From contig JAFUTJ010000007.1 in NCBI GenBank assembly GCA_017471445.1, positions 3,498 to 67,497 on the forward strand: a stretch of DNA of 64,000 bases. The letters are read 5' to 3'. Positions 29,614-64,000 of this stretch are shown in pieces; the stretch's first letter is position 1, and each line of letters starts with the position of its first letter. Under the pieces are notes generated by a model, which was given only the letters and a program-made list of their open reading frames with translations, ran no database searches and was not told where the DNA came from. This DNA is from Alphaproteobacteria bacterium. GTDB lineage: Bacteria; Pseudomonadota; Alphaproteobacteria; Rs-D84. The position numbers and the translations under genes were made by a program.

Positions 29614-30162
29614 ATTATTTTCACCAATCACGCCACCGGTATAGTGCGCATTTGTCGGCGCATTCGTGCATTTATTCGCCAATTTATAAAGTTTGGCCCC
29701 TGACCAGGCCTCATCTTGTAACCATATGCCAACACCCGGTAATATATAATATTGCAAAGTAAATTTCGTATATAACCCCGTTTGCGTTTCATAGTTCAGA
29801 AATGCATATACCTTATTCCCATCTTTGTCATATGCGCCTGAACCTGTATACAACCCCATACCACAGTTGGTTATCGTGTATGGATATGTTTCTTGTTCGC
29901 GGGATGTACAAGCCGCACTATAAATACTTTGCAGACCAGATAATTCCAACACATCTTGGATTGTTTGGGTGAATAATGGACAATGTATTTTGGTGTCATC
30001 ACCGGGACAATAATTACATGCCGGACACCCAACGCATTTGCCCGCGTCATCCAAATAATATCCCGCATTACACGTTGCAGCGCGGGCCGCGCCAAAACAA
30101 AGCACAAAGAACAAACTGCAAAGTACAATTGGCAATTTGCACGTATGCCGTGCATGCAACAT
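29407..30162 (-). CDS. secreted cysteine-rich protein, family B (paralog of 10622..11446)
   Basis: Start chosen at MLHARHTCKLPIVLCSLFFVLCFGAARA (signal peptide) by analogy with the paralog. The track ORF extends to 30291. It has a CNAGYYLDDAGKCVGCPACNYCPGDD module, and the C-terminal 68 aa are nearly identical to the paralog. Confidence 0.8.
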   Translation of the reverse strand: MLHARHTCKLPIVLCSLFFVLCFGAARAATCNAGYYLDDAGKCVGCPACNYCPGDDTKIHCPLFTQTIQDVLELSGLQSIYSAACTSREQETYPYTITNCGMGLYTGSGAYDKDGNKVYAFLNYETQTGLYTKFTLQYYILPGVGIWLQDEAWSGAKLYKLANKCTNAPTNAHYTGGVIGENNCPWECDAGYGHTSDDRCLPLCRIGDTAMNGINIYAEKHTKYAMAVPRNGATCWINAKRDNGGKLVPVN

Positions 30163-30315
30163 TTTACTATGAATTGCCGCGCATTGTCCGTCCTTGTCAC
30201 ACCGGTACGTTCGCGCGTGCCCGCGGTATGACGACGGTTTGGAACGCCGTGTCTTGTTCCAAAGAATTAGAAATATGAATTCGTAAAGCATAATATGTCC
30301 CCATTTGATTTATTA

Positions 30316-30542
30316 AATTAAAAACACCGCAAATAAATCGCGGTCGGGGTGTTGAGAAATCATACGTTTTAATGACTCTTGTAATCTTTTGCAATATATG
30401 CATTATAACCACAAGCACCCCAACCAACATTGGGGAATAAAACACACGGTGCAAAATTGTGAATTTCTGTGGAATCACGATGACTTTCGCACCGAAAACG
30501 TAAAGGCTTCTCACAGCCCCGAACCCAATTCCCATTGGATTC
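30316..30542 (-). ncRNA. candidate structured RNA, copy X (leader of family-B gene or stand-alone sRNA), homologous to 62815-63036
   Basis: Collinear conserved blocks are shared with copy Y: GAAUCCAA, AUUGGGUUCGGGGCU, UUCGGUGCGAAAG, CAUCGU, GGUUAUAA, CCCCGACC. It starts about 8 nt after TATAAT and ends in ACCGC-loop-GCGGU plus GUUUUUAAUUU. Confidence 0.55.
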
Positions 30543-30549
30543 GATATCC

Positions 30550-30578
30550 ATTATACTTTATTTGTGCGACAAAGACAA
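30550..30578 (-). promoter_or_regulatory. candidate promoter of RNA copy X
   Basis: The minus strand reads TTGTCT-N17-TATAAT, immediately downstream of the rpmH terminator. Confidence 0.5.
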
Positions 30579-30591
30579 TATGTTTAATTGC

Positions 30592-30622
30592 AAAGAAAAA
30601 ACCGCCAAACGGCGGCATATTT
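30592..30622 (-). terminator. intrinsic terminator after rpmH
   Basis: CCGCC-GTTT-GGCGG on the minus strand, followed by TTTTTTCTTTG. Confidence 0.75.
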
Positions 30623-31269: not shown

Positions 31270-31389
31270 TTCCTCACCATCGTACCTACAAAAGGCTATT
31301 TTGTCAATACAAAAATTCGCTTATAATGCTTGACCCGTTGTGCGAATTTTTGCTATTGTTTCATTGTTAAAAAACAAGGGAAATTCAGT

Positions 31390-34122
31390 ATGTCCGATAT
31401 AATTAATTCTAATGAAATAAACGAAATCAAAATTCCGACTTCGTCCATTGAACATGAAATGCGCACCAGTTTTTTGGATTATGCGATGTCGGTTATTGTT
31501 GACCGTGCATTGCCTGATGTTCGTGATGGGTGCAAACCGGTGCATCGTCGTATTTTGTATGTTATGAATGATGTTGCGCCCGCGACCAAGCCAACAGTTA
31601 AATCGGCACGTATCGTCGGTGATGTTATGGGTAAATATCATCCCCATGGCGACAGTTCTATTTACGAGGCGATGGTTCGTATGGGCCAAGATTTCTCTAT
31701 GGGGGAAATGCTGGTCCAGGGCCAAGGTAACTTTGGTTCCCGCGACGGTGACAAAGCGGCCGCCATGCGTTATACCGAGGCGCGATTGTCAAAACTTGGG
31801 GCATCGTTAATGGAAGATATGGATAAAGATACCGTTGATTGGCAACCAAACTTTGATGGCACGTTGCAAGAACCGGTTGTTTTGCCGACCAAGTTCCCGA
31901 ATTTCTTGGTAAACGGTGGTTCGGGTATCGCCGTTGGTATGGCAACAAATGTTCCAACATATAATTTGGGTGAAATTTGTAACGGCATTTTGGCAATTCT
32001 GGACAATCGCGATTTGTCAGATGACGAATTGTTTACAATCATTCCTGGACCCGATTTCCCAACAGGGGCGATGATTATGGGACGCGCCGGTGCATATAAG
32101 GCACACACCACAGGTCGCGGTTCTATTATTGTTCGCGCAAAAACACATATGGAAACATTTCACGACCACCCGGCGATTGTTGTAGATGAAATACCGTACC
32201 AGGTAAACAAGGCGCAAATGATTGTCAAAATCGCCGAATTGGCAAAAGAAAAACGCATAGAAGGAATTTCGGAAATTCGCGACGAATCATCCAAAGAAGG
32301 ATTGCGCATCGTCATTGAATTAAAGCGTGATGCAATTGCAGATGTGGTGTTAAATCACTTGTTCCAATATACAGAAATGCAAACAAATTTCCCGGTTAAT
32401 ATGATGGCATTGAACCGTGGACGCCCCATGCTGTTTAATGTGCGTGGTGTATTGGATGCGTTTATTGAATTTCGCGAAGAGGTTATTCGTCGTCGTACAA
32501 TATTTGACCTGAATAAAGCACGCAACCGTGCACATACGTTGTTGGGATTGTCGGTGGCGGTTGGCAATTTGGACGAGGTAATTGAACTGATTAAATCATC
32601 GGCCAGCCCCGAAGACGCACGTAACGCATTGGTTTCCCGCGGATGGAAGGCATCAGATATTGAAAGTTACATTCAGCTGATTGATGACCCAAATACGGAA
32701 TACAAAGACGGCATGTTCTTTATGTCCGAAGATCAGGCACGTGCGATTCTGGAATTGCAATTACATCGGTTGACAGGATTGGAACGCGATAAATTACACA
32801 ATGATTTGACAGAACTGGGTGCAACAATTCGCGACCTGCTAGATATCTTGGGCAGTCACGCGCGTATCATTCAAATTATTCGCGACGAAACAACCGCGGT
32901 ACGTGACAACTGGGCATCGCCACGCCGTACAGAAATATCAGATGCCGAAATTGACATTGATATCGAAGACCTGATTGCACGCGAAGACATGGTTGTGACT
33001 GTTACAAATACGGGATATATCAAACGTGTTGCATTGGACACATATCGCGCGCAAAAACGCGGTGGCAAGGGTCGCAATGCAATGACCACAAAAGAAGACG
33101 ACTATGTCGTACAGGTATTTGTTGCAAATACTCATACGCCGTTATTATTCTTCTCGTCCAAGGGACTGTGTTATAAATTAAAAACGTATAAATTACCCGA
33201 AGCGGCGGCGGCGGCCAAGGGACGTCCGTTGGTAAATCTGTTGCCGTTGGCGGCAGGCGAAACAATTACGGCAATTTTACCGGTCGCAGACGCAGATGTC
33301 GAACGCGTTAAGAATTCTGGCAAAGAACACTTCTTGATGTTTGCAACGGCATCCGGCACGGTACGTCGTAACCGCATGTCTGATTTTGATTCAATTCGCG
33401 CAAATGGAAAAATTGCCATGAAATTAGACGATGGCGACAGTCTGATTTCTGTGTTGCCATGTAATGAATACCAAGATGTATATTTGGCGACATATCGCGG
33501 TCGTTGCATACGATTCCCAGTGCCAGAAATTCGTGTATTTGCGGGACGTAATTCAACAGGTGTTCGCGGCATTACATTGGGACACGACGATAAAATTATC
33601 GGCATGGCGATGTTGAACCATGGCGAAAGCGATAGCAGTATCCGCAACGCATATATTAAACAATCACGTGCGGCACGTCGTGCGGCGACCGGTATTGACG
33701 AAGATGCCGGTGACGCAGATGACGAAACCACAACCGATGTTGTTTTAACAGATGAACAAATGAAACAAATGGCGGCGACAGAACAATTCATTTTAACTGT
33801 TTCGGAAAATGGGTTTGGCAAGCGCACCAGTTCATATGAATATCGCACAACACATCGTGGTGGCGGCGGATTCACCAATATTAAATTGGGCGGTAAAAAT
33901 ACTGCGGTGGCGGGTGCATTCCCGGTGGACGACAGCCATGATATTATGATGGTGACCGATGGCGGTAAAATTATTCGTACACCAGTTTCAGATGTACGCA
34001 TCGCTGGGCGCAGTACGGCGGGTGTAACATTATTCCGTACCGCGGAAAACGAACGGGTTGTATCGGCGATTTCAATCACATCGGATGATGATGCCGACGA
34101 TGCACCGGAAATAACAGAATAA
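31390..34122 (+). CDS. gyrA: DNA gyrase subunit A
   Basis: [38 protein letters not shown] (active-site Tyr region), and repeated C-terminal beta-pinwheel blades. The ATG at 31390 is preferred. Confidence 0.97.
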
Positions 34123-37504: not shown

Positions 37505-40500
37505 CTATATATCCAACAACTGTTGTTGACGACCACCGTCGCGCGCCAGTTTTTCTGCACGTTCTTCGTCACGGGCAATTTCACGAACACGACGTACATA
37601 TGCACCCGTACCAACCGGTATCAAACGACCAACAATCAGGTTTTCGTTTATACCGACCAATTTATCGGTTGAACCAGAAATTGCCGCATCAACCAAAACC
37701 TTGGTTGTTTGTTGGAACGACGCGTTGGAAATAAACGAACGTGATGTCAACGACGCACGTGTCAACCCAACCAGAACCTGGGACGCTTCGGCAACGCGGC
37801 CGCCGTCGTGTGCAACACGTGCATTTTCTTCTTCGAAATCAACACGGTCAACAACCTGTCCCATCAAGAATCCTGTATCGCCCGGATTTATGATTTCAAC
37901 ACGACGCGTCATTTCACGTATCAAGATTTCAATATGTTTATCGTTAATTACCACACCTTGCAGACGGTAAACGGCCTGAATCTGTTCAACCATAAAGGTT
38001 GCCAGGGCTTTCTGGCCCAGGATACGCAGAATATCTTGGGGTACCGGTTCACCGTCAACCAGTTTTTCGGCACGTTTAACAACATCACCACTGCGCACCA
38101 ACAGGTTTGTTCCCTTTGGCACCGCATATTCAACCGGTGCCGTTCCATCGGCCGGTTCAATGCGAATGATGATTTTAGATTTCGCGTCTTCTAATTCAAC
38201 GGTACCATCTGTTTCCGCCAATAATGCCGGGTTGGTTGGGCGACGAACCTCTAACAATTCTTCTACCCGTGGCAAACCGCCGGTAATATCGCTGGTACGT
38301 TTGGTCTGAACCGGAATACGCGCCAAAATATCACCTGCGCGAACCGTTGCGCCGTTTGCAACATTCAGAACAGAATATATCGGCAACAAGTATTCGGCAA
38401 TCTTTTTACCCCCCAGTGATATAACATTACCTTTGTCATCAACCAATGTCACCGCCGGTTTCAGGGCTTTCTTGGTATTTGTCTTCCAATTTATAACCTT
38501 GCGCGAAACAATACCCGTCATTGAGTCAACTTCTTCCTGGTACGAAACGTTTTCAAGCAAGTCGTTAAATTGAACAATACCGTCTTTTTCGGCAATAATC
38601 GTATTGGAATACGGATCCCATTCGGCAACCTTGGCACCACGTTCAACCGTTTCACCATCGTTTACGATTAACATTGATGCATACGGCAAAGATGTGCTGA
38701 ACAATTTTTCGCCTTTGGCATCAACAATATTCAATTCGCCATTACGCGACAGAACAACAACACGACCAACAGAATTCTTAATCGTATTTACACCTGTCAA
38801 TTTAATGGTACCGGCAACAGGCGCCTCTATAAAGTGACTTTCGGCACCACCGGCGGCAACACCACCAATATGGAACGTACGCAGTGTCAACTGGGTACCA
38901 GGTTCACCAATGGATTGCCCCGCGATAATACCAACGGCTTCGCCAACATGAACCAGCGCATTGCGCGACAAATCCATACCATAACATTTCGCGCACAGCC
39001 CATCCGAACAACACGTCAGCACAGAACGTACATCCACACTGGGCAGCCCAGATTCATTAATCTTTTTCGCCGCAGATTTTGTAATCAATTCACCTGCTGG
39101 AACAATCATTTCTTTGGTCAACGGGTGAATGATATCATGCGCCGCAGTACGTCCCAAGACCACATCACCCAACGCCACAGACAGTGTTGAACCCTGGTAC
39201 ACAGGCTTTGCCGTAATAAATTCAGACGTACCACAATCATGTTCGGTAATAACCGTGTTCTGGGCCAATTCAACCAAACGACGGGTCAGATATCCTGCCT
39301 CGGCTGTCTTTAAGGCTGTGTCTGACATACCTTTACGCGCGCCGTGCGTTGACGTAAAGTATTCCGACATGGTCAAACCTTCCTTAAAGTTGGAAATAAT
39401 CGGAACTTCAATAATAGAACCGTCTGGTTTCTGCATCATACCACGCATACCGGCCAACTGTTGAATTTGGCGTTTTGAACCACGGGCACCGGACAGTGCC
39501 ATCATCAACACAGAATTCCAATTGTCCCCGGTCGTTTTACCCAACGCGGCGTATGCCAAATCACCCAATTTATCGGTTGTTTTCTGCCACAGGTCAATCA
39601 GCTTATTGTGACGTTCACCCGCAGACAACAAACCATTTTGGTACTGCGATTCGATTTCTTCGGCTGCCTTTTCGGCATCACCAATCATCTTTTCCTTTTC
39701 TTCTGGAATAACGATATCGTTAAATCCAATGGAAATACCACTGCGGGCGGCCTGTTCGAACCCGGTGTTCTTTAACGCATCGGCCAACAGAATGGTTTCT
39801 TTATCACCACAACGTTCATATGTTGTCGCCAACAACGCCTTGATTTCTTTAACAGGCATAACCTTGTTCACCAAATCAAACGGCATATCGTCACGTTTTG
39901 GCAACAATTCACCCAAAATCATGCGCCCAGCGGTCGTTTTATAAACTTTACCATTAATACGTGCAACAATTGGCGTATGCAGTGTAATTGTATTGCTTTC
40001 CAAGGCCAACTTTACTTCGTCCATATTGGCAAAACGCGGCGATTTATCGTCATGTTCACCATTAATCAACGAAATATAGTACACACCCAACACCATGTCT
40101 TGTGATGGAACAATCATTGGTTCACCATTTGCCGGCGACAGAACGTTGTTTGACGACAACATTAATGTGCGCGCTTCCAATTGTGCCTCTAACGAAATTG
40201 GAACGTGAACAGACATCTGGTCACCGTCAAAGTCGGCATTAAAGCCCTTGCAAACCAATGGATGCAGACGGATTGCCTTGCCTTCTATCAAAACAGGTTC
40301 AAACGCCAACAGCGACAATCTGTGTAACGACGGTGCACGGTTTAACAATACCGGATGTTCGTGAATAACCTTTTCCAGCATTTCCCATACAACATCTTCG
40401 CCGTTTTCAACCATTTTGCGTGCGGTTTTCAGCGTATTCGCATAATCACCCGCCATCAAACGTGCAAACACAAATGGCTTAAATAATTCCAGTGCCATTG

Positions 40501-41614
40501 TCTTTGGCAAACCAACCTGGTGCAATTTCAAGGTTGGACCCGACACAATAACCGAACGACCCGAATAATCAACACGCTTACCCAACATGTTCATACGGAA
40601 ACGTCCCGATTTACCACGCAACGAATCAGACAATGATTTCAGCGGCCGACGATTTTGCGAAACCATTGGGCGCGCCTTGTGCCCATTATCAAACAGGGAA
40701 TCAACCGCTTCCTGTAACATGCGTTTTTCATTACGAATAATAATTTCCGGCGCATGCATTTCCATAAAACGTTTCAGGCGGTTATTACGAATAATCACAC
40801 GACGATACAAATCGTTCAGGTCAGATGCCGCAACATGCCCCGCATCCAATGTGACCAGTGGGCGCATATCTGGCGGAATAACCGGAATGATGTCCGGCAT
40901 CATCCATGCCGGGTCGGTCTTGGAATCCAAGAACGCTTCGACCAACTTTAATTGCTTAATTATTGATTTACGTTTCGCTTCGGACTTGGTTTCGGCCAAT
41001 TCTGCACGCAAACGCGTTCTTTCATCACCCATATCCAGGTTGGAAATAATACTGCGCACACCTTCGGCACCAATGCCAACATGAAATGCGTCGGCACCAA
41101 ATTCTTCGACTGCGGCCTGGTATTCATCTTCACTGATAACATCATATTGTTTCAGGTTTGTTAAACCCGGTTCAATAACAATGTATGCATCATATGAAAT
41201 AACCTGTTCTAATTTCTTTTGGGGTAAATTATTCAATAACGTCGCAATTTTACCTTCGCGCAGGAACCATGTATGCGCAACCGGCATTGCCAATTTGATA
41301 TGCCCCATACGTTCGCGACGCACGGCGGACGAACCAACCTCTACCCCGCAACGTTCACATACAACGCCACGGAATTTAATTCTTTTATACTTACCACACG
41401 CACATTCATAATCTTTGACCGGGCCAAAAATTTGCTGGCAAAACAGACCTTCGGCCTCTGGCTTTAATGAATGATAATTAATTGTTTCAGGCTTTTTAAC
41501 TTCGCCATGGGACCAAGACAGAATTTCTTCGGGTGACGCAATCGTAATGCGCAACGCGTCAAACTGTTCCTTGGTTTCAATTTGTCCAAATATCTTCTGC
41601 AACATATTTGTCAT
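37505..41614 (-). CDS. rpoC: DNA-directed RNA polymerase subunit beta'
   Basis: 1369 aa. It has the zinc-finger CxCGKY..CxxC and NADFDGDQM catalytic motifs. Confidence 0.98.
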   Translation of the reverse strand: MTNMLQKIFGQIETKEQFDALRITIASPEEILSWSHGEVKKPETINYHSLKPEAEGLFCQQIFGPVKDYECACGKYKRIKFRGVVCERCGVEVGSSAVRRERMGHIKLAMPVAHTWFLREGKIATLLNNLPQKKLEQVISYDAYIVIEPGLTNLKQYDVISEDEYQAAVEEFGADAFHVGIGAEGVRSIISNLDMGDERTRLRAELAETKSEAKRKSIIKQLKLVEAFLDSKTDPAWMMPDIIPVIPPDMRPLVTLDAGHVAASDLNDLYRRVIIRNNRLKRFMEMHAPEIIIRNEKRMLQEAVDSLFDNGHKARPMVSQNRRPLKSLSDSLRGKSGRFRMNMLGKRVDYSGRSVIVSGPTLKLHQVGLPKTMALELFKPFVFARLMAGDYANTLKTARKMVENGEDVVWEMLEKVIHEHPVLLNRAPSLHRLSLLAFEPVLIEGKAIRLHPLVCKGFNADFDGDQMSVHVPISLEAQLEARTLMLSSNNVLSPANGEPMIVPSQDMVLGVYYISLINGEHDDKSPRFANMDEVKLALESNTITLHTPIVARINGKVYKTTAGRMILGELLPKRDDMPFDLVNKVMPVKEIKALLATTYERCGDKETILLADALKNTGFEQAARSGISIGFNDIVIPEEKEKMIGDAEKAAEEIESQYQNGLLSAGERHNKLIDLWQKTTDKLGDLAYAALGKTTGDNWNSVLMMALSGARGSKRQIQQLAGMRGMMQKPDGSIIEVPIISNFKEGLTMSEYFTSTHGARKGMSDTALKTAEAGYLTRRLVELAQNTVITEHDCGTSEFITAKPVYQGSTLSVALGDVVLGRTAAHDIIHPLTKEMIVPAGELITKSAAKKINESGLPSVDVRSVLTCCSDGLCAKCYGMDLSRNALVHVGEAVGIIAGQSIGEPGTQLTLRTFHIGGVAAGGAESHFIEAPVAGTIKLTGVNTIKNSVGRVVVLSRNGELNIVDAKGEKLFSTSLPYASMLIVNDGETVERGAKVAEWDPYSNTIIAEKDGIVQFNDLLENVSYQEEVDSMTGIVSRKVINWKTNTKKALKPAVTLVDDKGNVISLGGKKIAEYLLPIYSVLNVANGATVRAGDILARIPVQTKRTSDITGGLPRVEELLEVRRPTNPALLAETDGTVELEDAKSKIIIRIEPADGTAPVEYAVPKGTNLLVRSGDVVKRAEKLVDGEPVPQDILRILGQKALATFMVEQIQAVYRLQGVVINDKHIEILIREMTRRVEIINPGDTGFLMGQVVDRVDFEEENARVAHDGGRVAEASQVLVGLTRASLTSRSFISNASFQQTTKVLVDAAISGSTDKLVGINENLIVGRLIPVGTGAYVRRVREIARDEERAEKLARDGGRQQQLLDI

Positions 41615-41659
41615 ATCTTATAGCTCCTTTCAGTCGCTTTATGTTAATTGCTGGTTGAT

Positions 41660-41707
41660 GGTTGTTGGTCGTCAGTTGTTAATAAATATAACCAACAACT
41701 AACAACC
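41660..41707 (-). other. GGTTGTT/AACAACC repeat hairpin in the rpoB-rpoC spacer
   Basis: ggttgtt (41660-66) and agttgtt (41674-80) pair with aacaact (41694-700) and aacaacc (41701-07). There is a 7-nt bulge and a 13-nt loop. Confidence 0.4.
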
Positions 41708-41720
41708 AAAAAGCCAACAA

Positions 41721-44700
41721 CTAATCAATCTTTTTCGGTGTCATTGCCAGACCCAATCCGCGCAATTCGCGCACCAAGACATTAAATGCCTCTGGCGTGC
41801 CCATTTGGATATCATTGCTGCCGGAAATGATGGATTCGTACATCTTGTTACGGCCAACAATGTCGTCTGATTTAACAGTCAACATTTCACGCAGCAGGTG
41901 TGCGGCACCATGTGCTTCTAAGGCCCAAACCTCCATTTCACCCAGTCGCTGGCCACCCATGTGGGCTTTACCAGACAATGGCTGTTGGGTAACCAATGAA
42001 TAGCTGCCGATGGAACGCGCATGAATCTTTTCATCAACAAAGTGATGCAGTTTCAACATGTACATAACACCAACCGTTACCGGGCGTGCAAACTTTTCAC
42101 CGGTCATACCATCGTATAAGGTAAATTGCCCTGTTTCGGGTAATCCTGCTAATTTCAGCATTGAACGAATGTCGTCTGGACTGGCCCCGTTAAAGGTCGG
42201 GGTCGCCATTGGAACACCTTCGCGTAACAAAGACGCTTCGGCACGAACATCGGTATCGGTCATCTTGGACAATTTTTCTGCCGTTGCCGGACCATAAATC
42301 TTGCCCATGATATTACGCAAATCGTCGGTTACGGCACGTTTTGCGCGAACTTCGTCCAAAACATCGCCGATTTGTTTACCCAACGTACGCGCGGCCATAC
42401 CAAGGTGCGTTTCCAAAATCTGGCCGATGTTCATACGCGACGGCACACCCAACGGATTCAGAACAATATCAACCGGTGTACCATCTTCCATGTATGGCAT
42501 ATCTTCAACCGGAACAACGCGGGAAACAATACCCTTGTTACCGTGACGACCGGCCATTTTATCACCCGGTTGCAATTTCATTTTGTGGGCGATGTAAACC
42601 TTGACTTCTTTCAAGACACCGGCATTCAGTGAATTGCTTTCTGTCGCCTTGGCAACTTCGGCATCGGCCACTTCATTCAATGTCTTTAATTTCAGAACAT
42701 GCTGTTCGCGTAATTCATCAATTTTAACCTGAACATCTTTGTTCTTTACGACCAATTTTTTAACATCGCTGGCACGGATTCCATCAAACACTTCGGCGGT
42801 TAATTTTTTACCGACGAATGGTTTCAGACTGCCCGAACCGGAATCAATGACTTCGTTTTCGGCCAATTGAAATACTTGGTCAGCAAAGCCCTTTTCTATA
42901 ATTGCGATTTCTTCTTCGCGGTCTTTGTTAATTTGTTCAATTTTTTGCAATTCAATCATCTGGGTGCGTTCGTCTTTCTTGACACCATGACGCGTCAAAA
43001 CGTTTACACCGATAACCGTACCTTCTTCGTTCGGTCCGACTTTCAGTGATGTATCTTTGACATTCAACGCCTTTTCACCAAAGATGTTGCGCAATAACGC
43101 CTCTTCTGGGGTTAACAAGGTTTCAGATTTTGGCGAAACACGCCCAACCAGAATATCACCCTGCTTTACGCGCGCACCGATATAGATGATACCGGATTCG
43201 TCCAGGTTTTTCAGTGCATCTTCACCAACGTTTGGAATATCGCGCGTCAGGCTTTCCGGCCCCAATTGTGTATCACGAACCTTGATTTCCTTTTCAACGA
43301 TTTTGATAGATGTAAACGCATCATCGCGGGAAATACGTTCCGATATAACGATAGCATCTTCGTAGTTATAACCACGCCATGGCACAAACGCAACCAATAC
43401 ATTACGTCCCAACGCCAATTCACCATAGTTCATTGATGCGCCGTCGGCGATAATATCGCCTGCAGAAACACGGTCACCAACCTTGACCAATGGTTTTTGA
43501 TGGATAATGGTTTCACTGTTGCTGCGTTCAAATTTTTCCAGGTTATAAATATCAACCCCTGTCACGACATTGCGACTGTTCATGCACTTTACCACAATGC
43601 GATTTGCATCAACGGATTCAACAATACCACTGTGCTTTGCGACCTTGCCCGTGCGGGAATCACGCGCAACTTCGCGCTCAATACCGGTACCAACCAACGG
43701 GGCCTGAACCCGCATCAGTGGAACCGCCTGGCGTTGCATATTGGAACCCATCAACGCACGGTTTGCGTCATCGTTTTCAACGAACGGGATTAATCCGGTT
43801 GCGATTGAAACCACCTGACGCGGTTCAACATCGATCATGTCAACGTCAGCCACCGGAACCATTGTAAATTCGCCATCAACACGTGCCGTAACGGTTTCAC
43901 CCAATAATGCACCATGTTCATCGGTCGGGGTATTACCCTGGGCAATTTTGTGTCCCAATTCTTCATCCGCCGTCAGATAAACCATCTTGTCTGTAATTTT
44001 TCCGTTTTCAACAACGTAATATGGCGTTTCAATAAACCCGTATGGATTTACACGTGCATATATAGACAAGTGATTAATCAGACCAATATTTGCCCCTTCG
44101 GGTGTGTGAATTGGACACAACCGGCCATAGTGTGTTGGATGAACGTCACGTACGTCAATACCCGCGCGTTCACGGTTCAGACCACCCGGCCCCAATGCCG
44201 ACACCAAACGTTTATGTTCCAATTCTGCCAACGGATTATACGCATCCATAAACTGGGACAATTGTGATGTACCCAAGAATTCGGAAACCAAGCTCATCAA
44301 CGGTTTAACGTTAATAACGTCTTGGGGTTGCATGTTGGAAATATTCGGGCTGCTTAACGCTTCGCGTACCAGGCGTTCAATACGCACCATACCGGTACGG
44401 AAATTTTGTTCCAACAATTCACCAACCGTACGAACACGACGATTAGACAGATTATCAATATCATCAATAGTATCGCGATGATCGATAATATTTGTTAATG
44501 TCTTTAACACCGCCAAGAAATCCGTCTTTGTCAACAGACGTTCATCTTCTGGCCGTTTACCAGATTCAATTTTCAGACGCTTGTTCATCTTGAAACGACC
44601 AACCGCCGACAAATCATAATAAGCCGCCTCGAAACCTTGACGCAAGAACAAGTTAATCGCCGCTTCTAGTGTTGGGCGTTCGCCCGGACGAATGATATTA

Positions 44701-45857
44701 TAAATTTCAATCAACGCCTCTTCCCGGTTTGCAGTTTTATCGGTAACCAGCGTATTGCGCATGTGCGATGAAACCGTTGTATTATCAATTGCGATTAACG
44801 AAATTTCCTTGACACCCATTTTGTCCAAATCTGACAAAACTTCTTCGGTTAATTCGGTACCAGCCGGGAATACAACGTCACCACCGTTCATAACTGGGTC
44901 AAATAGGTATTCACCCACCAGTGATTCTGGCAACATACCGTATTTCTTGGATGTCGTTGCAATTTTGGCCAGGCGTTTTGCATTTAATCTGTCACCTTTT
45001 GTGGCCAACGCCTTTTTATCCTTTGGATTAATAATATCGTAATTCAGACGATATTTTTCCAACCCATCAAACGCAGCCACATCGCCAATCCACATATTTC
45101 CATCAAAAGACAACGGCAAACGTTTATAAAACGCAGACAAGATTTCTGTATCACTCATCCCGCGAATTGATGCACTGCGCGGGTTTGCAATCCATTTCTT
45201 TTCATCGTCAACCGATGGCAAACACCGCAACAACACAGTTGCCGGAACCTTGCGCCGACGGTCAATACGAACATAAATTACACCCTTGGATTCTTCAAAA
45301 TCAATCCAAGAACCGTGTTCCGGAATGATACGCGCAGTATATGTTGTTGGATTGCCGGCAACCTTGGCTTCCTTGGTTGTGGCAAACACAACACCCTGGG
45401 CACGGTGCATTTGTGATACGATAACACGTTCAACACCGGCGGCAATAAAGCTGCCACGTTCGGTCATTAACGGGACATCGCCCATGAATATCTCTTGTTC
45501 TTTGATGTCGCGCAATGTTTTTTTACCATCTTCTGCAACATCCCATAAAATCAATCTCAGCTTCAGTTTCAGTTTGCTGGAATATGTCATATTCCGCAAC
45601 ATGCATTCCTTGACATTATATACCGGCTTGTCCAAAGTGTATTCAACAAATTCCAAATCGGCAACACCTGCGTAATCCTTAATCGGGAACATGGATGAAA
45701 AAACGTTCTGCAACCCCATATTTTTACGATTTTGTGGTGCAACATCGGCCTGCAAAAAGTCTTTGTAGGAATTGTATTGAATTTCAACCAAGTCGGGAAG
45801 CGGAGTTTGCAAAAAACTTTTACCAAAAGATTTTCTAATTTTCTGGATAACTGCCAT
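41721..45857 (-). CDS. rpoB: DNA-directed RNA polymerase subunit beta
   Basis: The start MAVIQKIRKSFGK is preceded by AAGGA. Conserved Rif-region and C-terminal motifs are present. The track start at 45932 adds 25 non-conserved residues. Confidence 0.98.
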   Translation of the reverse strand: MAVIQKIRKSFGKSFLQTPLPDLVEIQYNSYKDFLQADVAPQNRKNMGLQNVFSSMFPIKDYAGVADLEFVEYTLDKPVYNVKECMLRNMTYSSKLKLKLRLILWDVAEDGKKTLRDIKEQEIFMGDVPLMTERGSFIAAGVERVIVSQMHRAQGVVFATTKEAKVAGNPTTYTARIIPEHGSWIDFEESKGVIYVRIDRRRKVPATVLLRCLPSVDDEKKWIANPRSASIRGMSDTEILSAFYKRLPLSFDGNMWIGDVAAFDGLEKYRLNYDIINPKDKKALATKGDRLNAKRLAKIATTSKKYGMLPESLVGEYLFDPVMNGGDVVFPAGTELTEEVLSDLDKMGVKEISLIAIDNTTVSSHMRNTLVTDKTANREEALIEIYNIIRPGERPTLEAAINLFLRQGFEAAYYDLSAVGRFKMNKRLKIESGKRPEDERLLTKTDFLAVLKTLTNIIDHRDTIDDIDNLSNRRVRTVGELLEQNFRTGMVRIERLVREALSSPNISNMQPQDVINVKPLMSLVSEFLGTSQLSQFMDAYNPLAELEHKRLVSALGPGGLNRERAGIDVRDVHPTHYGRLCPIHTPEGANIGLINHLSIYARVNPYGFIETPYYVVENGKITDKMVYLTADEELGHKIAQGNTPTDEHGALLGETVTARVDGEFTMVPVADVDMIDVEPRQVVSIATGLIPFVENDDANRALMGSNMQRQAVPLMRVQAPLVGTGIEREVARDSRTGKVAKHSGIVESVDANRIVVKCMNSRNVVTGVDIYNLEKFERSNSETIIHQKPLVKVGDRVSAGDIIADGASMNYGELALGRNVLVAFVPWRGYNYEDAIVISERISRDDAFTSIKIVEKEIKVRDTQLGPESLTRDIPNVGEDALKNLDESGIIYIGARVKQGDILVGRVSPKSETLLTPEEALLRNIFGEKALNVKDTSLKVGPNEEGTVIGVNVLTRHGVKKDERTQMIELQKIEQINKDREEEIAIIEKGFADQVFQLAENEVIDSGSGSLKPFVGKKLTAEVFDGIRASDVKKLVVKNKDVQVKIDELREQHVLKLKTLNEVADAEVAKATESNSLNAGVLKEVKVYIAHKMKLQPGDKMAGRHGNKGIVSRVVPVEDMPYMEDGTPVDIVLNPLGVPSRMNIGQILETHLGMAARTLGKQIGDVLDEVRAKRAVTDDLRNIMGKIYGPATAEKLSKMTDTDVRAEASLLREGVPMATPTFNGASPDDIRSMLKLAGLPETGQFTLYDGMTGEKFARPVTVGVMYMLKLHHFVDEKIHARSIGSYSLVTQQPLSGKAHMGGQRLGEMEVWALEAHGAAHLLREMLTVKSDDIVGRNKMYESIISGSNDIQMGTPEAFNVLVRELRGLGLAMTPKKID

Positions 45858-45999
45858 GGGTATCAATCCTTTTTTGTTATGCGTTTTGCAAACGAATCTA
45901 TCGTCTTTTTTTTCGCCACCAAGCCCGCCCATAAAAATCTGGGCGGGTGGTGATTTGCCCCGAATATACGCCCGGGGCGTGCGTTTTTGTTTAGTTAAA

Positions 46000-46365
46000 T
46001 TATTTCAATTCAACCTTGGCACCTGCTGCTTCTAACGATGCTTTCATTTTGTCTGCTTCGTCCTTCGCAACAGCTTCTTTTACGGTCTTTGGTGCAGATT
46101 CAACCAAGGCTTTTGCTTCGCCCAGGCCCAAACCTGTGATTTCCTTAACGGCCTTGATAACCGCCAATTTGTTCGCACCAACGTCGGCCAAAACAACGTC
46201 AAATTCAGACTTTTCTTCTGCAGCAGCAGCAGCCGGACCCGCAGCAACAGCCACAGCGGCGGCGGCACTAACGCCCCATGTTTCTTCCAATGCTTTGGAC
46301 AGTTCAACTGCTTCCAAAACGGTCAATTTTGACAATTCTTCAACTAATTTCTGAATGTCTGCCAT
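46000..46365 (-). CDS. rplL: 50S ribosomal protein L7/L12
   Basis: [32 protein letters not shown], an Ala-rich hinge, and a C-terminal KVELK. Confidence 0.95.
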
Positions 46366-46396
46366 TTTTTGCTCCTATATATTCTTTTTTAGGTTT

Positions 46397-46873
46397 TTAA
46401 TTCTTTTTTCCGTATTCGCCAGAAACACGTGCCAAGCGCGATGCCGGTTCAACCAATATACGCGCAATTGTACCACGAATTTCCAACAACGACGGCAGTT
46501 TGGATAATTGCACAATGCCATTCACATCCAATACGTCCGCATCCATTTTACCACCAACGATTGTCAAATTCGGATGTTCTTCGGCGAATTTGGCCAATAC
46601 CTTGGTCACCGCCAGGCCGTCTGTTGCAATTGCAACCGCGGTCGGGCGTTTCATCATGTCGGACACAGGTGCAAAGTCGGTGTCTTTCAACGCCAACTTC
46701 ATCAAACGGTTTTTGACAACCTTGAACAAAGATACAGAACCGCGCAATTCGTTACGCAAGATTTCCATTTCTTTTACGGTCAACCCATGGTTTTCAATAA
46801 CGAAAACACCGTTTGCCGATTGAAGCGATGACTGCAACGATGAAATCAAATCTGATTTTTCTTCGCGTTTCAT
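46397..46873 (-). CDS. rplJ: 50S ribosomal protein L10
   Basis: Position between rplA and rplL, with L10-like sequence (GLTVKEMEILRNELR). Confidence 0.93.
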   Translation of the reverse strand: MKREEKSDLISSLQSSLQSANGVFVIENHGLTVKEMEILRNELRGSVSLFKVVKNRLMKLALKDTDFAPVSDMMKRPTAVAIATDGLAVTKVLAKFAEEHPNLTIVGGKMDADVLDVNGIVQLSKLPSLLEIRGTIARILVEPASRLARVSGEYGKKN

Positions 46874-47058
46874 CTGTTATACCCTTACTACTTCTTTTGT
46901 TAACTTTCCATCCGGTGTTGCCACCGATATGGGGCCTTTTGTTCCTGCCCCAAAGAAACTTTTCTTTGTCTATGATGGGAATTAAGCGTTGCCGCACCAT
47001 CAGTCTTGGACAGAAATCTGTTCTTTGTCGGCGACACATTACAGTCCGCCGACAAAAA
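46874..47058 (-). promoter_or_regulatory. rplJ 5' leader (possible L10-leader autoregulatory RNA)
   Basis: 185-nt untranslated spacer between rplA and rplJ with the hairpin UGUCGGCG...CGCCGACA. The assignment rests on position only. Confidence 0.35.
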
Positions 47059-47733
47059 TTATTTTACATCAATTTTCAAGCCCGGACCCTGGGTTGTTGC
47101 AACAGATGCACCCAAGATATATTGCCCCTTGGCGGATGCCGGTTTAACCTTTTTCAATTGTTCAATCAATGCGTTTGCATTTTCAACCAATTGTTCGGTT
47201 GTAAACGACATCTTGCCCAGCCCGGCATGAATAATACCGTTCTTTTCTGCACGATATTCAATTTGGCCCGCCTTGGCGGTTTTTACTGCATCGGCAACGT
47301 TGTTTGTAACCGTACCCAGTTTTGGATTCGGCATTAACCCCTTGGGACCCAAGATACGTGCGATTTTCGACATTTTCGGCATCATATCCGGTGTCGCAAT
47401 TACACGATCAAAGTTAATTTCACCGCCGGCAACACGTTCAATCAAATCTTCGCCACCAACGACGTCGGCACCTGCTTTCTGGGCTTCATCGGCCGAATTA
47501 ACAGTAAACACCGCAACACGTACAGTTTTGCCCGTACCATTTGGCAATGACAACATGCCGCGAATATTCTGGTCTGCCTTGGTTACATCAATACCCAAGC
47601 GAACTGCGATTTCCAGACTTTCATCAAATTTTTTGGAACAGAACGGACGCAATGCATCAACTGCATCAGCCAGCGTGTAAACCATATCGCGATTTAATTC
47701 CGCCCAAGTTTGCTGTCTTTTTGTTGCTTTCAT
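47059..47733 (-). CDS. rplA: 50S ribosomal protein L1
   Basis: FDESLEIAVRLGIDVTKADQNIRG...LPNGTGK. Confidence 0.95.
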   Translation of the reverse strand: MKATKRQQTWAELNRDMVYTLADAVDALRPFCSKKFDESLEIAVRLGIDVTKADQNIRGMLSLPNGTGKTVRVAVFTVNSADEAQKAGADVVGGEDLIERVAGGEINFDRVIATPDMMPKMSKIARILGPKGLMPNPKLGTVTNNVADAVKTAKAGQIEYRAEKNGIIHAGLGKMSFTTEQLVENANALIEQLKKVKPASAKGQYILGASVATTQGPGLKIDVK

Positions 47734-47737
47734 GTCT

Positions 47738-48169
47738 TTATTCCTCCACCTTTACGCCCATTGAACGGCATTGACCCGCAACGATATTCATCGCAGATTC
47801 AATGGTAGAGCAATTCAAATCCGGCATTTTATTTTCTGCAATTTCTTTGATTTGCGCACGTGTAATTGTACCGACAAAATCACGACCCGGCTTGTGCGAG
47901 CCAATCTTTAATTTCAACGCCTTTTTAATATAGTATGATACCGGCGGCAATTTCATAATAAACTCGAAACTGCGGTCTGTATACACCGTGATAATACACG
48001 GAATCGGCATGCCCGGTTCTTTATCAGACGTTTTATCGTTAAATTGTTTGCAGAATTCGGCGATATTAACACCCGCCGCACCCAACGCCGGCCCAATCGG
48101 TGGCGCAGGATTTGCCTGTTTGGCGGGGACAACCAACTTCACAATCCCCTTTAATTCTTTCTTTGCCAT
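47738..48169 (-). CDS. rplK: 50S ribosomal protein L11
   Basis: [34 protein letters not shown]. Confidence 0.95.
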
Positions 48170-48269
48170 TTTTTACTCCATCTTTTGTTTTTTTTGAGTC
48201 TTTGTGGTACGATGTTGGCGCATCTGCCACAAACTTTAATGCCACATGGGAATTACCCCACACAACACA

Positions 48270-48803
48270 TTAAACCCGTTCAACCTGGGTGAAATCAAGT
48301 TCCACACTGGTTTCGCGACCGAACACCAAAATCGTTACGGTCATTTTTTGTTTTAAGTTATCAACTTCGCTGGCAATACCATTAAAGCCCGCAAACGGCC
48401 CATCAATAACATGTACTTCTTGACCCACCTCGTAATCAACCTCGTCACTGGCGGTCGCCCCCTCCTCTACTTGACGCATCAGACGACGCGCCTCCTCTTC
48501 GGTGACTGCAATCGGCTTGTTACGGGCACCCAAGAACATAACCACCTGGGGCAACAACTTTACCAACGAAAAAGTTTCGTTATTCATAACCATCTGAACT
48601 ACGATATAACCCGGAAAAAACTTTCTTTCGGTCTTAACGCGCTTACCCCCCTTAATCTCAGTCACTTCGCGCGTCGGCACCAGAATTTCACCAAAATACG
48701 CATTCAGGCGACGCTTGTCAATCTGTTCACGTAACGAACGCGCAACCTTGTCTTCGCAACTCGTGTGCACATTTACAACGAACCACTGCATTTTATCTTC
48801 CAT
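48270..48803 (-). CDS. nusG: transcription termination/antitermination factor NusG
   Basis: WFVVNVHTSCEDKV (NGN domain) and a KOW motif (GQEVHVIDGPFAGFNG). AAGGGA SD. Confidence 0.93.
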   Translation of the reverse strand: MEDKMQWFVVNVHTSCEDKVARSLREQIDKRRLNAYFGEILVPTREVTEIKGGKRVKTERKFFPGYIVVQMVMNNETFSLVKLLPQVVMFLGARNKPIAVTEEEARRLMRQVEEGATASDEVDYEVGQEVHVIDGPFAGFNGIASEVDNLKQKMTVTILVFGRETSVELDFTQVERV

Positions 48804-60728: not shown

Positions 60729-60803
60729 TGGCAGTCCCAACGGGAATCGAACCCGTGTTACCGGAATGAGAATCCGATGTCCTGACCGCTAGACGATGGG
60801 ACC
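60729..60803 (-). tRNA. trnE: tRNA-Glu (anticodon CUC)
   Basis: Manual cloverleaf: GGUCCCA acceptor, D-arm GUCU/GGAC, anticodon loop UUCUCAU, T-loop UUCGAUU, encoded CCA. 75 nt. Confidence 0.85.
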
Positions 60804-60867: not shown

Positions 60868-61905
60868 TCAAAAATCCATTGCCTTTAATTGTTTTAATAC
60901 CAATGATTGCACAGTATATGAACTTAATTCTGTGGCAGATTTTTTGTATTCGTCAATATTTTCTTCCGACGTGATATATGTTTTTTCGTCTGCCACCATA
61001 ACCTGTGGGCCAACTGCGCCCATGCGTGGCCCCAGCCTATCCAGTGCGTGGTGCATTTCATGTGCAAACACACTTATCATATGATAAAATAAAACATCAC
61101 CTGCTTTCACAGCACTTTTTACCATCGCAATATTTACAACAACTTTCACGGCAGGTTTTGCATTCGGATATTTTGATGGTGCCCGTTGAAACTTCTTAAA
61201 TTCTGCATCTTGTTCTGCACGTGACATATTGCTTGGCAAAACCATTGTAAATGCCTGCATACAAATACCATATGTTTTATCCAGACCGCGCGGACGTGAA
61301 ACAGCCGTATTCCAATCTGTTACAACACTAACAAAAACAGTATGTGGGTCTATATTGTATTCATTGCAAAAATCTGATGTCAATTCAGAAAACAATGCCG
61401 AATATGCCGCAATTTCATCTTGCGTCGTGGCATTTTTTGCAGCCATGACAAGTTCTGGATATTTATTCAAACGACGAATCCAATCATGTGCAAACTGATA
61501 TGACACGTAATATCGATTTACCGTCAACTTGTCAAAATCATCACGAATGTCGGCCGCATTTTCGTCACGTTTCATTTTGCGCGCCAAATCATTATTAAAT
61601 GTATCAAATTCGCCTTTTATAAAATCTAAGTCATCACGATACGCAAACTGAAACACCGATAAATTGCGTGGTCGATACCTGTCCATGCGTATGGCGCGTT
61701 TAATTCGCGCAATGAATTCATCAACTGAAAACTTGTTTTTTTGTAACAGGTTTACAACCATTGGATTCATTTGACCCAATATTTTATCACGTGTGGCGGC
61801 GGATTTTGCCACACGGTATTTCTGTAACAAAACAATATTTTTCTTGGCAATTTCTGTTTCTATGTTACGTTGCGCATTATAAAATTTAGTATCGTTTATA
61901 TCCAT
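60868..61905 (-). CDS. hypothetical protein with HExxH zinc-metalloprotease-like motif
   Basis: 345 aa, no signal peptide, with FAHEMHHALD near the C-terminus. AT-rich and flanked by two tRNA genes. Confidence 0.7.
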   Translation of the reverse strand: MDINDTKFYNAQRNIETEIAKKNIVLLQKYRVAKSAATRDKILGQMNPMVVNLLQKNKFSVDEFIARIKRAIRMDRYRPRNLSVFQFAYRDDLDFIKGEFDTFNNDLARKMKRDENAADIRDDFDKLTVNRYYVSYQFAHDWIRRLNKYPELVMAAKNATTQDEIAAYSALFSELTSDFCNEYNIDPHTVFVSVVTDWNTAVSRPRGLDKTYGICMQAFTMVLPSNMSRAEQDAEFKKFQRAPSKYPNAKPAVKVVVNIAMVKSAVKAGDVLFYHMISVFAHEMHHALDRLGPRMGAVGPQVMVADEKTYITSEENIDEYKKSATELSSYTVQSLVLKQLKAMDF

Positions 61906-62082: not shown

Positions 62083-62156
62083 TGGGGTGTCGTCTAATGG
62101 TAGGACAAGAGATTTTGGTTCTCTTTATCATGGTTCGAATCCGTGCGCCCCAACCA
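62083..62156 (+). tRNA. trnQ: tRNA-Gln (anticodon UUG)
   Basis: Manual cloverleaf: UGGGGUG/CGCCCCA acceptor, anticodon stem AGAGA/UCUCU with loop UUUUGGU, T-arm CAUGG-UUCGAAU-CCGUG, encoded CCA. 74 nt. Confidence 0.9.
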
Positions 62157-62779: not shown

Positions 62780-62808
62780 TTTACAATTTATGTTTGATAT
62801 TTTATAAT
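62780..62808 (+). promoter_or_regulatory. candidate promoter of RNA copy Y
   Basis: TTTACA-N17-TATAAT. Confidence 0.55.
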
Positions 62809-62814
62809 CACTTT

Positions 62815-63036
62815 GAATCCAAGAGATTGGGTTCGGGGCTATCTCAAGCCCAGAACATTCGGTGCGAAAGCATCGTAATCTGATGTTATCGGTGTCTTTT
62901 GCGCCGTTATCATCCCTGACTTATGGTCGGGGAGCTGTTGGTTATAAAATACGAACTAACCGAAAGACCAATGGAATCGTTAATGTTCTGATTTGAGAAC
63001 TCCCCGACCACCAATTTTTTGGTGGTCTAATTTTGT
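62815..63036 (+). ncRNA. candidate structured RNA, copy Y (leader of 63052.. operon or sRNA), homologous to 30316-30542
   Basis: Hairpins GAAUCCAA-GAGA-UUGGGUUC, GGGCU-AUCUCA-AGCCC, CGGUG-CGAAAG-CAUCG and GAUGUUAUCGGUG-UCUUUUG-CGCCGUUAUCAUC. A long-range helix joins 62925-62934 with 63000-63009. A terminator at 63006-63027 is followed by a U-rich tail. Confidence 0.55.
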
Positions 63037-63051
63037 ATCACGAGGATGGTA

Positions 63052-63888
63052 ATGACAGAAGAAAAAGATTACACAAGAATAATTGAGGTGAGGACAGGGA
63101 CTGCACCTGCTGAAAATCCGAACACTGAAAAGAAACAACCAGAAATTCAATATCAGGAAATGTCATTGTTGCAACGTGCAATACATTTTCGTGATTTTGA
63201 AATAGAAATGTCATGGAAACGAGCGCAATATTTCACAATATTCTTATCGGCCATTTTTATTGCCTATTACCATATTAAGACTGGATTACCCAGCGGAATA
63301 GATAATTTTTTTGATTTTTGTGAAACAAAAAACAGTTTTATATATAAATATTTACCGATGTTACTAATGGGACTTGGCACACTGTTATCGTACATATGGT
63401 ATTTAGTAAATCGTGGTTCAAAACAAACATACGAAAATTGGGAACATCATATTGATTGCATAGAAGCAACATATCATAAAGGTGTGCTGTATAGCAATTT
63501 ATGCCATAAAGAAAAGCCCAAGTTTTATAGACTATTAAAGTCATACCCAATATCAGCATCCAAAGCAAGTAATTTAGTTAGTTTAATAATCACAATTAGT
63601 TTTGGTGTCTGTTTTATATTTGAGATTATTGAATTATTAAAAACAAGTTGGATGCGATGTGTTGGTTGCACTCTTACTTTTGGTTCAGTGGTAATGATTA
63701 TATGTGTGTTCAGATTTTGCAACGATTGGATAAAATCAAGTAGTTATGGCAAAAAAACTGATGAAGAGTCACACCAAAAGACAATATTTTATTTTCATAA
63801 CCGTTTGACAGATGATGACTATAAGTATGTTTATGAAAACTCAAATTCTAAATTACCGAATACAAAAAAACAAAAGGCACAAAAATGA
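63052..63888 (+). CDS. integral membrane protein, unknown function
   Basis: GAGGA SD 5 nt before the ATG at 63052 (the track start is 63046). Hydrophobic segments include YFTIFLSAIFIAYY, YLPMLLMGLGTLLSYIWYL, LVSLIITISFGVCFIFEII and CTLTFGSVVMIICVF. The tail is Lys-rich. Confidence 0.7.
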   Translation: MTEEKDYTRIIEVRTGTAPAENPNTEKKQPEIQYQEMSLLQRAIHFRDFEIEMSWKRAQYFTIFLSAIFIAYYHIKTGLPSGIDNFFDFCETKNSFIYKYLPMLLMGLGTLLSYIWYLVNRGSKQTYENWEHHIDCIEATYHKGVLYSNLCHKEKPKFYRLLKSYPISASKASNLVSLIITISFGVCFIFEIIELLKTSWMRCVGCTLTFGSVVMIICVFRFCNDWIKSSSYGKKTDEESHQKTIFYFHNRLTDDDYKYVYENSNSKLPNTKKQKAQK

Positions 63889-64000
63889 AAAAATATATAC
63901 TATCTATATTGCTGATTTGTAATATGACATTTGCATATTCTGCCACAAGCACCACGAACGATATTTATGTCCTGGCCCAGGCAAACAGCACATCAGAATT
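63885..64000 (+). CDS. secreted protein (N-terminal fragment, continues beyond window)
   Basis: Its ATG overlaps the upstream TGA (ATGA). MKKYILSILLICNMTFAYSA is a signal peptide. Confidence 0.5.
   Translation, partial: MKKYILSILLICNMTFAYSATSTTNDIYVLAQANSTSE

Follow-up and report, generated by a model that had tools for sequence, protein, structure and literature searches.

Does a structured stretch near the end of a 64-kb segment of an alphaproteobacterial contig encode an RNA that decides whether the gene behind it is transcribed? The window analyzed here is the whole stretch of 64,000 nucleotides (nt) from an Alphaproteobacteria bacterium of the Rs-D84 lineage (GenBank assembly GCA_017471445.1, contig JAFUTJ010000007.1, positions 3,498 to 67,497). 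The original prediction, made from its letters, had described an RNA present twice, with alternative helices of the attenuator kind. The copy that precedes a membrane-protein operon is here termed copy Y, and its counterpart on the opposite strand copy X. We propose, with a probability of about 0.7, that both belong to a new family of cis-acting 5′-leader RNAs that control the downstream gene by transcription attenuation. Judged by comparison of homologs, the members share an RNA fold with two pseudoknots, three conserved and mutually exclusive pairings (A:B, B:C and a terminator), and a tight coupling to a gene on the same strand.

The promoter predicted for copy Y is present (Table 1), and 11 of its 12 hexamer positions are identical to the consensus. 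Transcription probably starts at ~62811-62815, with this sigma-70-type promoter driving a transcript from ~62815. Promoter-like hexamers with the same spacing were found upstream of the RNA in most homologs. The intrinsic terminator was located where it had been proposed, and in both copies a G+C-rich hairpin followed by a U-run, as expected of such terminators, stands directly 3′ of the RNA. A Shine-Dalgarno (SD) site and a start codon lie downstream of the terminator in both copies. In copy Y the likely start codon (ATG, 63052) is 5 nt past GAGGA and 15 nt past the U-tract, so that the SD and ATG were correctly predicted and the spacing of ~25 nt was not. The leader is also densely structured, as had been claimed: the minimum free energy (MFE) was -94.1 kcal/mol for copy Y (z = -8.48) and -81.8 kcal/mol for copy X (z = -5.78), and in neither case was any of 200 shuffled sequences as stable. 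A profile search of the window yielded exactly two leader copies. The collinear homolog announced on the other strand is copy X (30542-30327), which has a column identity of 77% with copy Y and carries its own promoter (TTGTCT-N17-TATAAT) and terminator. Copy X is the most divergent member of the family and misses the 5′ strand of hairpin H4.

Homologs were abundant. A first pattern, consisting of two stretches common to copies X and Y, was run on a species-representative genome set and matched 49 places. Of these, 45 were genuine homologs, all from metagenome-assembled genomes (MAGs) assigned to uncultured Alphaproteobacteria or 'proteobacteria' of the gut or rumen; several of these MAGs bear the label Candidatus Enterousia. 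A second pattern, with other anchor segments, gave at least 120 places in metagenomes, and all those listed but four were confirmed by the family profile. The total is at least ~160 homologs, among them more than 110 from metagenomes, and every one came from gut or rumen metagenomes or from MAGs of uncultured Alphaproteobacteria (Ca. Enterousia and relatives). Ca. Enterousia belongs to Rs-D84, an order in which most genomes are smaller than 1 Mb (PMC12306168). Several long contigs or MAGs carry two or more leader copies. Searches of viral contigs, phage records and plasmids gave no match, and an origin from a mobile element, phage or plasmid was rejected on this basis. Eight places (L010, L041, L050, L051, L093, L112, L123 and L154) were not detected by the family profile and were discarded as chance matches; the four inspected (L010, L041, L050 and L051) were high-GC and unrelated.

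In certain related MAGs (L047 and L048; L004 with L005, L008 and L039; L013, L030 and L040), a near-identical promoter and leader are followed by unrelated genes, and the identity ends at or just past CCCCGACC or the terminator. This suggests that leaders have been duplicated, or have recombined, in front of different cargo genes.

For the comparative analysis, the matches were clustered at 93% identity, and the resulting 139 sequences were aligned with MAFFT (alignment A4) and used for pair counts under rival structures. Since the sequences were gathered with exact-match patterns, conservation is inflated at the anchor segments; MAFFT alignments are imperfect in variable loops, and sequence counts are not equal to independent evolutionary events. 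On A4, a pseudoknotted model of 62 pairs had 96.6% of its cells paired, and 38 pairs were changed on both sides. The covariation score was 0.342 compared with 0.154 in shuffles; none of 500 shuffles attained 0.342, and a control in which the 3′ partner was shifted by 1-3 columns scored ~0.05. The conserved, covarying structured domain that a riboswitch should have is present.

All four hairpins predicted for the 5′ part (P1, P2l, H3 and H4) were found at their predicted positions and are upheld by the alignment. The original prediction had overlooked the long-range helices P2 and P3, which make the overall fold more complex than the row of local hairpins that stands. P2 and P3 are, by their covariation, the best-supported pairings of the whole RNA. 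The three central pairs of P2 show 4-6 pair types each, with 66-84 of the 139 sequences altered on both sides, and all seven pairs of P3 are compensatory, in 24-75 sequences each. In both cases (P2 in P2l and P3 in P8) a short linker is left in the loop on the 5′ side and none on the 3′ side. This is the geometry of an H-type pseudoknot, and indicates that the fold is an interlocked double pseudoknot joining the 5′ and 3′ domains.

The local helices are supported to varying degrees. P1 shows some compensatory pairs (CG/UG/UA/AU), and P2l, with 97.2% of cells paired, shows compensatory changes in four of its five pairs. H4, present in copy Y as GAUGUUAUCGGUG-UCUUUUG-CGCCGUUAUCAUC, has an inner stem that is 99.1% paired with three compensatory pairs; its outer stem is only 75% paired and is not proven by the alignment. 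In the 3′ domain, seven of eight P6 pairs and three of three P7 pairs are compensatory. P7 is GNRA-capped in most homologs, and one clade has a shorter hairpin in place of the arm. P8 (94.6% of cells paired) is near invariant with few compensatory changes, and H3 is almost invariant, which is partly imposed by the search patterns. A 'double deletion' in L020 and L042 was considered as support for P8 and set aside, since these variants make P8 overlap P3 and are not clean. Altogether the leader has three GNRA-capped hairpins and many conserved unpaired bases, features typical of large ligand-binding RNAs.

A nested MFE/RNAalifold model has a closing helix PG (GGGG:CCCC, 62835-62838:63002-63005) and a long P4/P5 rod; PG was rejected as the main fold. 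The inner pair of PG is broken in seven sequences in which P2l is intact, in three of them by a change from G-C to A-U. P4/P5, which pairs H3 with H4, shows no compensatory changes, and H4 has them (L029, L032 and L013). The long-range helices P2 and P3 of the nested model were retained as pseudoknots.

Table 1. Positions of the leader elements and of the adjoining genes in the window (RNA letters are given for transcribed elements)
Feature	Position	Strand	Description
Promoter of copy Y	62780-62808	+	-35 TTTACA 62780-62785, 17-nt spacer, -10 TATAAT 62803-62808
Copy Y leader RNA	62815-63036	+	~215 nt; promoter on 5′ side, terminator on 3′ side
P1 hairpin	62815-62834	+	GAAUCCAA-GAGA-UUGGGUUC, GNRA loop; 96.6% of cells paired on A4
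P2l hairpin	62836-62851	+	GGGCU-AUCUCA-AGCCC; loop used by pseudoknot P2
Pseudoknot helix P2	62842-62846 : 62994-62998	+	5′ strand in P2l loop
Pseudoknot helix P3	62853-62859 : 62982-62988	+	3′ strand in P8 loop
H3 hairpin	62860-62875	+	CGGUGC-GAAA-GCAUCG; 6-bp stem, GAAA tetraloop
H4 hairpin	62882-62914	+	inner stem CGGUG/CGCCG 62890-62894:62902-62906, U-rich loop; outer stem GAUG/CAUC
A:B hairpin (putative anti-antiterminator)	62913-62933	+	UCCCUGA 62913-62919 : UCGGGGA 62927-62933
B:C long-range helix (putative antiterminator)	62925-63009	+	GGUCGGGGAG 62925-62934 : CUCCCCGACC 63000-63009; encloses P6, P7, P8
P6/P7 arm	62935-62974	+	helix P6, internal loop UAUAAAAUA/GAAAG, small hairpin P7
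P8 hairpin	62975-62993	+	AAUCG/UGAUU; loop forms P3
Intrinsic terminator of copy Y	63006-63036	+	stem GACCACCAA/UUGGUGGUC 63006-63027, then UAAUUUUGU (U-run 63028-63036)
SD of first gene after copy Y	63042-63046	+	GAGGA
First gene after copy Y	63052-63888	+	278 aa, 8xMP-family membrane protein, PF24838, E = 6.8e-24
Second gene of copy Y operon	63885-64000	+	N-terminal signal peptide; cut by window end
Copy X	30327-30578	-	promoter 30578-30550, RNA 30542-30345, terminator 30344-30326 with U-run
Gene after copy X	29407-30291	-	294 aa, Cys-rich, no confident Pfam domain

The three overlapping pairings foreseen for the 3′ part, namely a local hairpin CCCUGAC/GUCGGGG, the helix that closes the P6-P8 region and the terminator, are all present in copy Y. 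Segment A is UCCCUGAC; the nucleotides of segment B are common to A:B and B:C, and the last four bases of segment C, GACC (63006-63009), form the base of the terminator stem. A:B and B:C each show their own compensatory changes. For A:B, an A at column 156 occurs solely with a U at column 175 (13 of 13) and never with C (101 sequences). For B:C, a U at column 180 occurs with an A at column 258 (13 of 13) and G-C replaces G-U in eight sequences, the counts of pair 180:258 being AU 68, GU 48, UA 13 and GC 8; the segment A partner of column 180 does not track these changes. The terminator stem also shows covariation. In 121 of the 139 sequences a terminator hairpin was anchored at the first G of GACC, with a median energy of -12.4 kcal/mol and a median of 6 U in the next 9 nt, and a hairpin plus U-run terminator is general across the leader family. 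When folding of the platform was constrained in the 139 sequences, the median difference between A:B plus terminator and B:C was -1.6 kcal/mol; on these modeled energies, the two states are near-isoenergetic and have the balance that a switch needs. The independent covariation of A:B, B:C and the terminator, together with the balanced energies, supports the 1:2 / 2:3 / 3:4 attenuator layout of the original prediction. It also gives the leader, through shared nucleotides, separate covariation and close energies, the mutual exclusion between platform helices and sensor part that is expected of a riboswitch.

Some further observations concern the elements of this fold. The A/U-rich motif UAUAnAAyA of the P6 internal loop (62942-62966 in the window) is kept as the hairpin loop GUAUAUAUAAAU in the short-arm clade that lacks P7 (e.g., L006, L017, L021, L024, L029 and L036), so the motif itself appears to be the functional element. 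As DNA, UAUAnAAyA is -10 hexamer-like. P1 (62815-62819) and P8 (62974-62978) both have the pentamer GAAUC as their 5′ strand; it is near invariant in each though helical, a hint that the sequence is specifically recognized or that it can pair alternatively with the P1 3′ strand. The 5′ strand of H3 and its GAAA loop, CGGUGCGAAAG, are complementary over 11 nt to the U-rich loop and 3′ strand of H4, CUUUUGCGCCG (62860-62906), and the U-run in the H4 loop is ~95% conserved. In copy X (30497-30440, minus strand), which has no 5′ strand of H4, only the alternative H3:H4 pairing is possible. This complementarity may represent a second toggle or a tertiary contact.

The leaders are closely tied to genes. 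An open reading frame (ORF) on the same strand follows the leader in 146 of the 147 loci with enough flank, its start codon lies a median of 29 nt past the end of the RNA model, and an SD-like motif accompanies 98.6% of the 138 distinct downstream genes. As this spacing has no room for a separate promoter, the downstream gene must be expressed by read-through from the leader. The claim that the leader is untranslated also holds: no conserved ORF was found in it, more than 90% of the sequences have stops in every frame, and the longest ATG-initiated ORF has a median of 27 codons at a position that is not conserved. A translated leader or upstream ORF, and a leader-peptide attenuator of the trp type, were rejected on these grounds. 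In the operon of copy Y, the ATGA coupling described between the membrane-protein gene and a secreted-protein gene was found as an overlap at 63885-63888. The N-terminus of the secreted protein (63885-64000), MKKYILSILLICNMTFAYSATSTTNDIYVLAQ, resembles that of the protein encoded after the leader in L031, which is more than 1000 aa long, its ORF being truncated where the locus ends.

A crude rule assigned a signal peptide or a lipobox to ~62% of the distinct downstream proteins. When 135 downstream proteins were compared with Pfam, ~100 had no match and 15 carried Listeria-Bacteroides repeat domains (Flg_new); other matches were to GT2 glycosyltransferases, an acyltransferase-3, an outer-membrane beta-barrel protein, three DNA methyltransferases, and to GmrSD and Mrr nucleases. 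DNA methyltransferase models were also among those matched in a PADLOC scan. Read as a pointer to one metabolite or ion, these genes reveal no pathway, and the set is compatible with a global signal. In one 64-kb window, the Pfam scan of all ORFs showed no second-messenger enzyme among the top 25 families listed, all of which are housekeeping. By analogy, the regulon resembles the phase-variable surface, envelope and restriction-modification classes of host-adapted bacteria. In other host-adapted bacteria, such genes are phase-variable at the DNA level.

The statement that the leader matches no known riboswitch class was examined with Rfam 15 (4227 models), where assignment to a family requires the curated gathering score. 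At gathering thresholds, three tRNAs were the only hits in the whole window and no family was assigned to the leader; in E-value mode, both copies and 14 homologs gave nothing near any gathering score. A permuted tmRNA match near copy X (12.5 bits, opposite strand) was taken as noise. A T-box or other tRNA-sensing leader was rejected, since there was no Rfam T-box match and no aminoacyl-tRNA synthetase or amino-acid genes occurred among the 135 downstream proteins scanned. No description of an RNA motif from Enterousia or Rs-D84 turned up in our literature searches; unnamed RNAs in microbiome catalogues were not comparable by sequence. Our literature search on 8xMP gave nothing useful.

In the mechanism that we propose, the transcript would start near 62815 at the sigma-70-type promoter, and its first ~190 nt would fold into P1, P2l, H3, H4, the P6/P7 arm and P8. 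P2 would join the P2l loop to the strand just 5′ of C, and P3 would join the P8 loop to the strand just 3′ of P2l. In the A:B state C would be free, the terminator would form and transcription would end before the gene. In the B:C state GACC would be sequestered, the terminator would be deprived of its base, and RNA polymerase would read through. The balance of the pairings would be shifted by an effector to which the pseudoknotted domain responds, the likeliest candidate being a small molecule or second messenger. We lean, weakly, towards the compact state with B:C stacked beside P2 as the ON state, since only one nucleotide separates the two helices and stacking could occur.

Within the attenuation model, a riboswitch with a small-molecule or second-messenger effector is our leading sub-hypothesis. 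It is favored because of the size of the RNA, its pseudoknots and GNRA loops, and its many conserved unpaired bases, and we hold it tentatively. With more reserve, we consider it possible that the leader is a new riboswitch class whose interlocked double-pseudoknot aptamer senses a global signal (a second messenger or a metabolite of a partner organism) and switches a whole 'contingency' regulon in the ultra-small gut Alphaproteobacteria of Rs-D84. As part of that joint proposal, variable surface proteins, envelope glycosyltransferases and restriction-modification or defence genes would be under RNA-based control.

Several points weigh against these proposals. The downstream set is mixed (secreted proteins and lipoproteins, Flg_new, GT2, methylases, Mrr/GmrSD and 8xMP), is not of the metabolic or transport kind, and indicates no ligand; control by a protein would suit such a regulon no less than a second-messenger riboswitch would. 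Copy X, without the 5′ strand of H4, may adopt a different fold. Because H3 and P8 are almost invariant, covariation offers no proof of their pairing, which is plausible and not proven, and the P4/P5 pairing of H3 with H4 fits nearly all sequences as an alternative. Finally, the 5′ end, the terminated 3′ end and the regulated read-through are all inferred.

The strongest competitor is a leader whose antiterminator depends on a protein or another trans-acting factor, with the choice of B:C or terminator made by an RNA-binding regulator or a specialised NusG-type factor. Leaders are controlled in this manner by PyrR, by the Bgl/Sac and ANTAR regulators and by LoaP. The logic of the three competing pairings is independent of the kind of effector, the regulon is a coherent lifestyle set (surface, envelope-modifying and restriction-modification genes) and not a metabolic pathway, and the sequence-invariant helical segments (GAAUC in P1 and P8, and all of H3) would suit sequence-specific protein contacts. 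However, a fold of ~190 nt that comprises ~10 helices and two pseudoknots is far larger than the antiterminator sites that proteins are known to bind. The leaders are spread over many unrelated chromosomal sites and have no candidate regulator gene linked to them, and genomes smaller than 1 Mb (PMC12306168) would be expected to encode few regulators. We regard protein control as unlikely, and prefer direct sensing by the RNA.

That the 3′ half of the leader is a diverged member of sRNA-Xcc1 (RF02221) was suggested by an alignment of copy Y 62925-63017 to the full model, with 32.9 bits (E = 4.8e-4 in a 401-nt search) and a layout of a G/C-rich closing helix, two hairpins and an ACC...U tail. 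The context is also similar, in that sRNA-Xcc1 lies directly upstream of accessory genes: of symE in Xanthomonas integron cassettes (bioRxiv 10.1101/2025.06.18.660453) and of an ORF6N gene in APSE phage (bioRxiv 10.1101/2020.03.17.996009). We see in this a likeness of genomic setting and nothing more. Against a gathering cut-off of 53 the score falls short, and no such match was obtained with copy X, with 13 other homologs, or with L007 in an equal 401-nt search. In addition, the leader has an extra 5′ domain of ~110 nt, and both pseudoknots extend into the supposed sRNA-Xcc1 part. Membership of RF02221, being sub-threshold, confined to copy Y and irreproducible in other members, was rejected, and a distant kinship of the 3′ half is very unlikely.

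A stand-alone gene for a ~215-nt small RNA (sRNA) acting in trans, with leaky read-through into the downstream gene as an incidental effect, appears more improbable still. In its favor, a discrete terminated RNA should accumulate, given the strong promoter and good terminator of each copy, and there are several copies per genome. Terminated riboswitch leaders are also known to act in trans in other bacteria. Against this stand the SD-bearing gene on the same strand, a median of 29 nt away in 146 of 147 loci with no promoter space, and the competition among A:B, B:C and the terminator, which is conserved, shows covariation and would be purposeless in a constitutively terminated sRNA. We give least credence to a constitutive structured leader that senses nothing and serves as a processive antitermination RNA (of the HK022 put or Bacillus EAR type) or as a 5′ stabiliser or insulator: it would account for the complex pseudoknotted fold and for the link to surface and envelope genes, like that of EAR, which is associated with eps operons, but the downstream units mostly comprise one or two short genes instead of long operons that contain terminators, Rfam offers no matching antitermination family, and the exact GACC overlap of the terminator with B:C, with A competing for B, indicates a decision at one terminator.

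The leaders of the window lie in core chromosome. The window contains rpoB, rpoC, rplL, rplA, rplK and gyrA (37508-45932 and 46003-48803, minus strand; 31330-34119, plus strand), and the leader-controlled genes are scattered between such housekeeping genes and form no island. Copy X is placed after rpmH (ribosomal protein L34; 30626-30778, minus strand) and the rpmH terminator (30601-30616), and rnpA does not follow there. In many bacteria, rnpA follows rpmH. An ORF of 345 aa (60868-61905, minus strand) has a HEMHH zinc-metalloprotease-like motif (FAHEMHHALD) and is flanked by two tRNA genes (60732-60803, minus strand, and 62083-62153, plus strand).

If confirmed, the leader would be a large new class of structured regulatory RNA, for which the comparative support is very strong, from an uncultured, genome-reduced gut lineage (Rs-D84, Ca. 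Enterousia, <1 Mb) whose biology is almost unknown. A common leader of secreted or surface, envelope-modifying and restriction-modification genes offers a handle on the interface of these bacteria with hosts, partners and phages, and the identity of the effector would reveal a signal important to the Rs-D84 lifestyle. The interlocked double pseudoknot with a three-layer expression platform is of structural interest in itself, and a covariance model built from the alignments would allow leaders to be annotated, and the regulon defined, in hundreds of MAGs.

The known systems close to the leader include transcription-terminating riboswitches such as SAM-I/S-box and c-di-GMP-I/GEMM-I. They share with the leader the order of promoter, structured domain, terminator, SD and gene, a closing region of the structured domain that shares nucleotides with the terminator, GNRA loops and pseudoknots, and several copies per genome before different genes; c-di-GMP-I/GEMM-I recurs many times within a genome, ahead of surface and motility genes. 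Unlike the known riboswitches, the leader has no Rfam riboswitch match, an interlocked double pseudoknot that joins its 5′ and 3′ domains, an extra anti-antiterminator layer in A:B, and a regulon with DNA methylases and restriction enzymes. The three successive mutually exclusive helices (anti-antiterminator, antiterminator and terminator) recall the trp leader and the PyrR-controlled pyr leader; those attenuators differ in that the leader described here has no leader peptide, has a large conserved structured domain upstream, and has no known binding protein. With HK022 put, EAR and the LoaP leader it has in common a cis-acting structured RNA before surface or accessory genes, then a terminator; it is distinguished from them by the overlap of its terminator with the conserved fold, its short downstream units and the lack of a family match. 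The 3′ domain of copy Y has the outline of sRNA-Xcc1 and its position before accessory genes, whereas sRNA-Xcc1 is ~87 nt long, is described as trans-acting, and belongs to gammaproteobacterial (and some betaproteobacterial) integrons, phages and islands, with no occurrence in Rs-D84.

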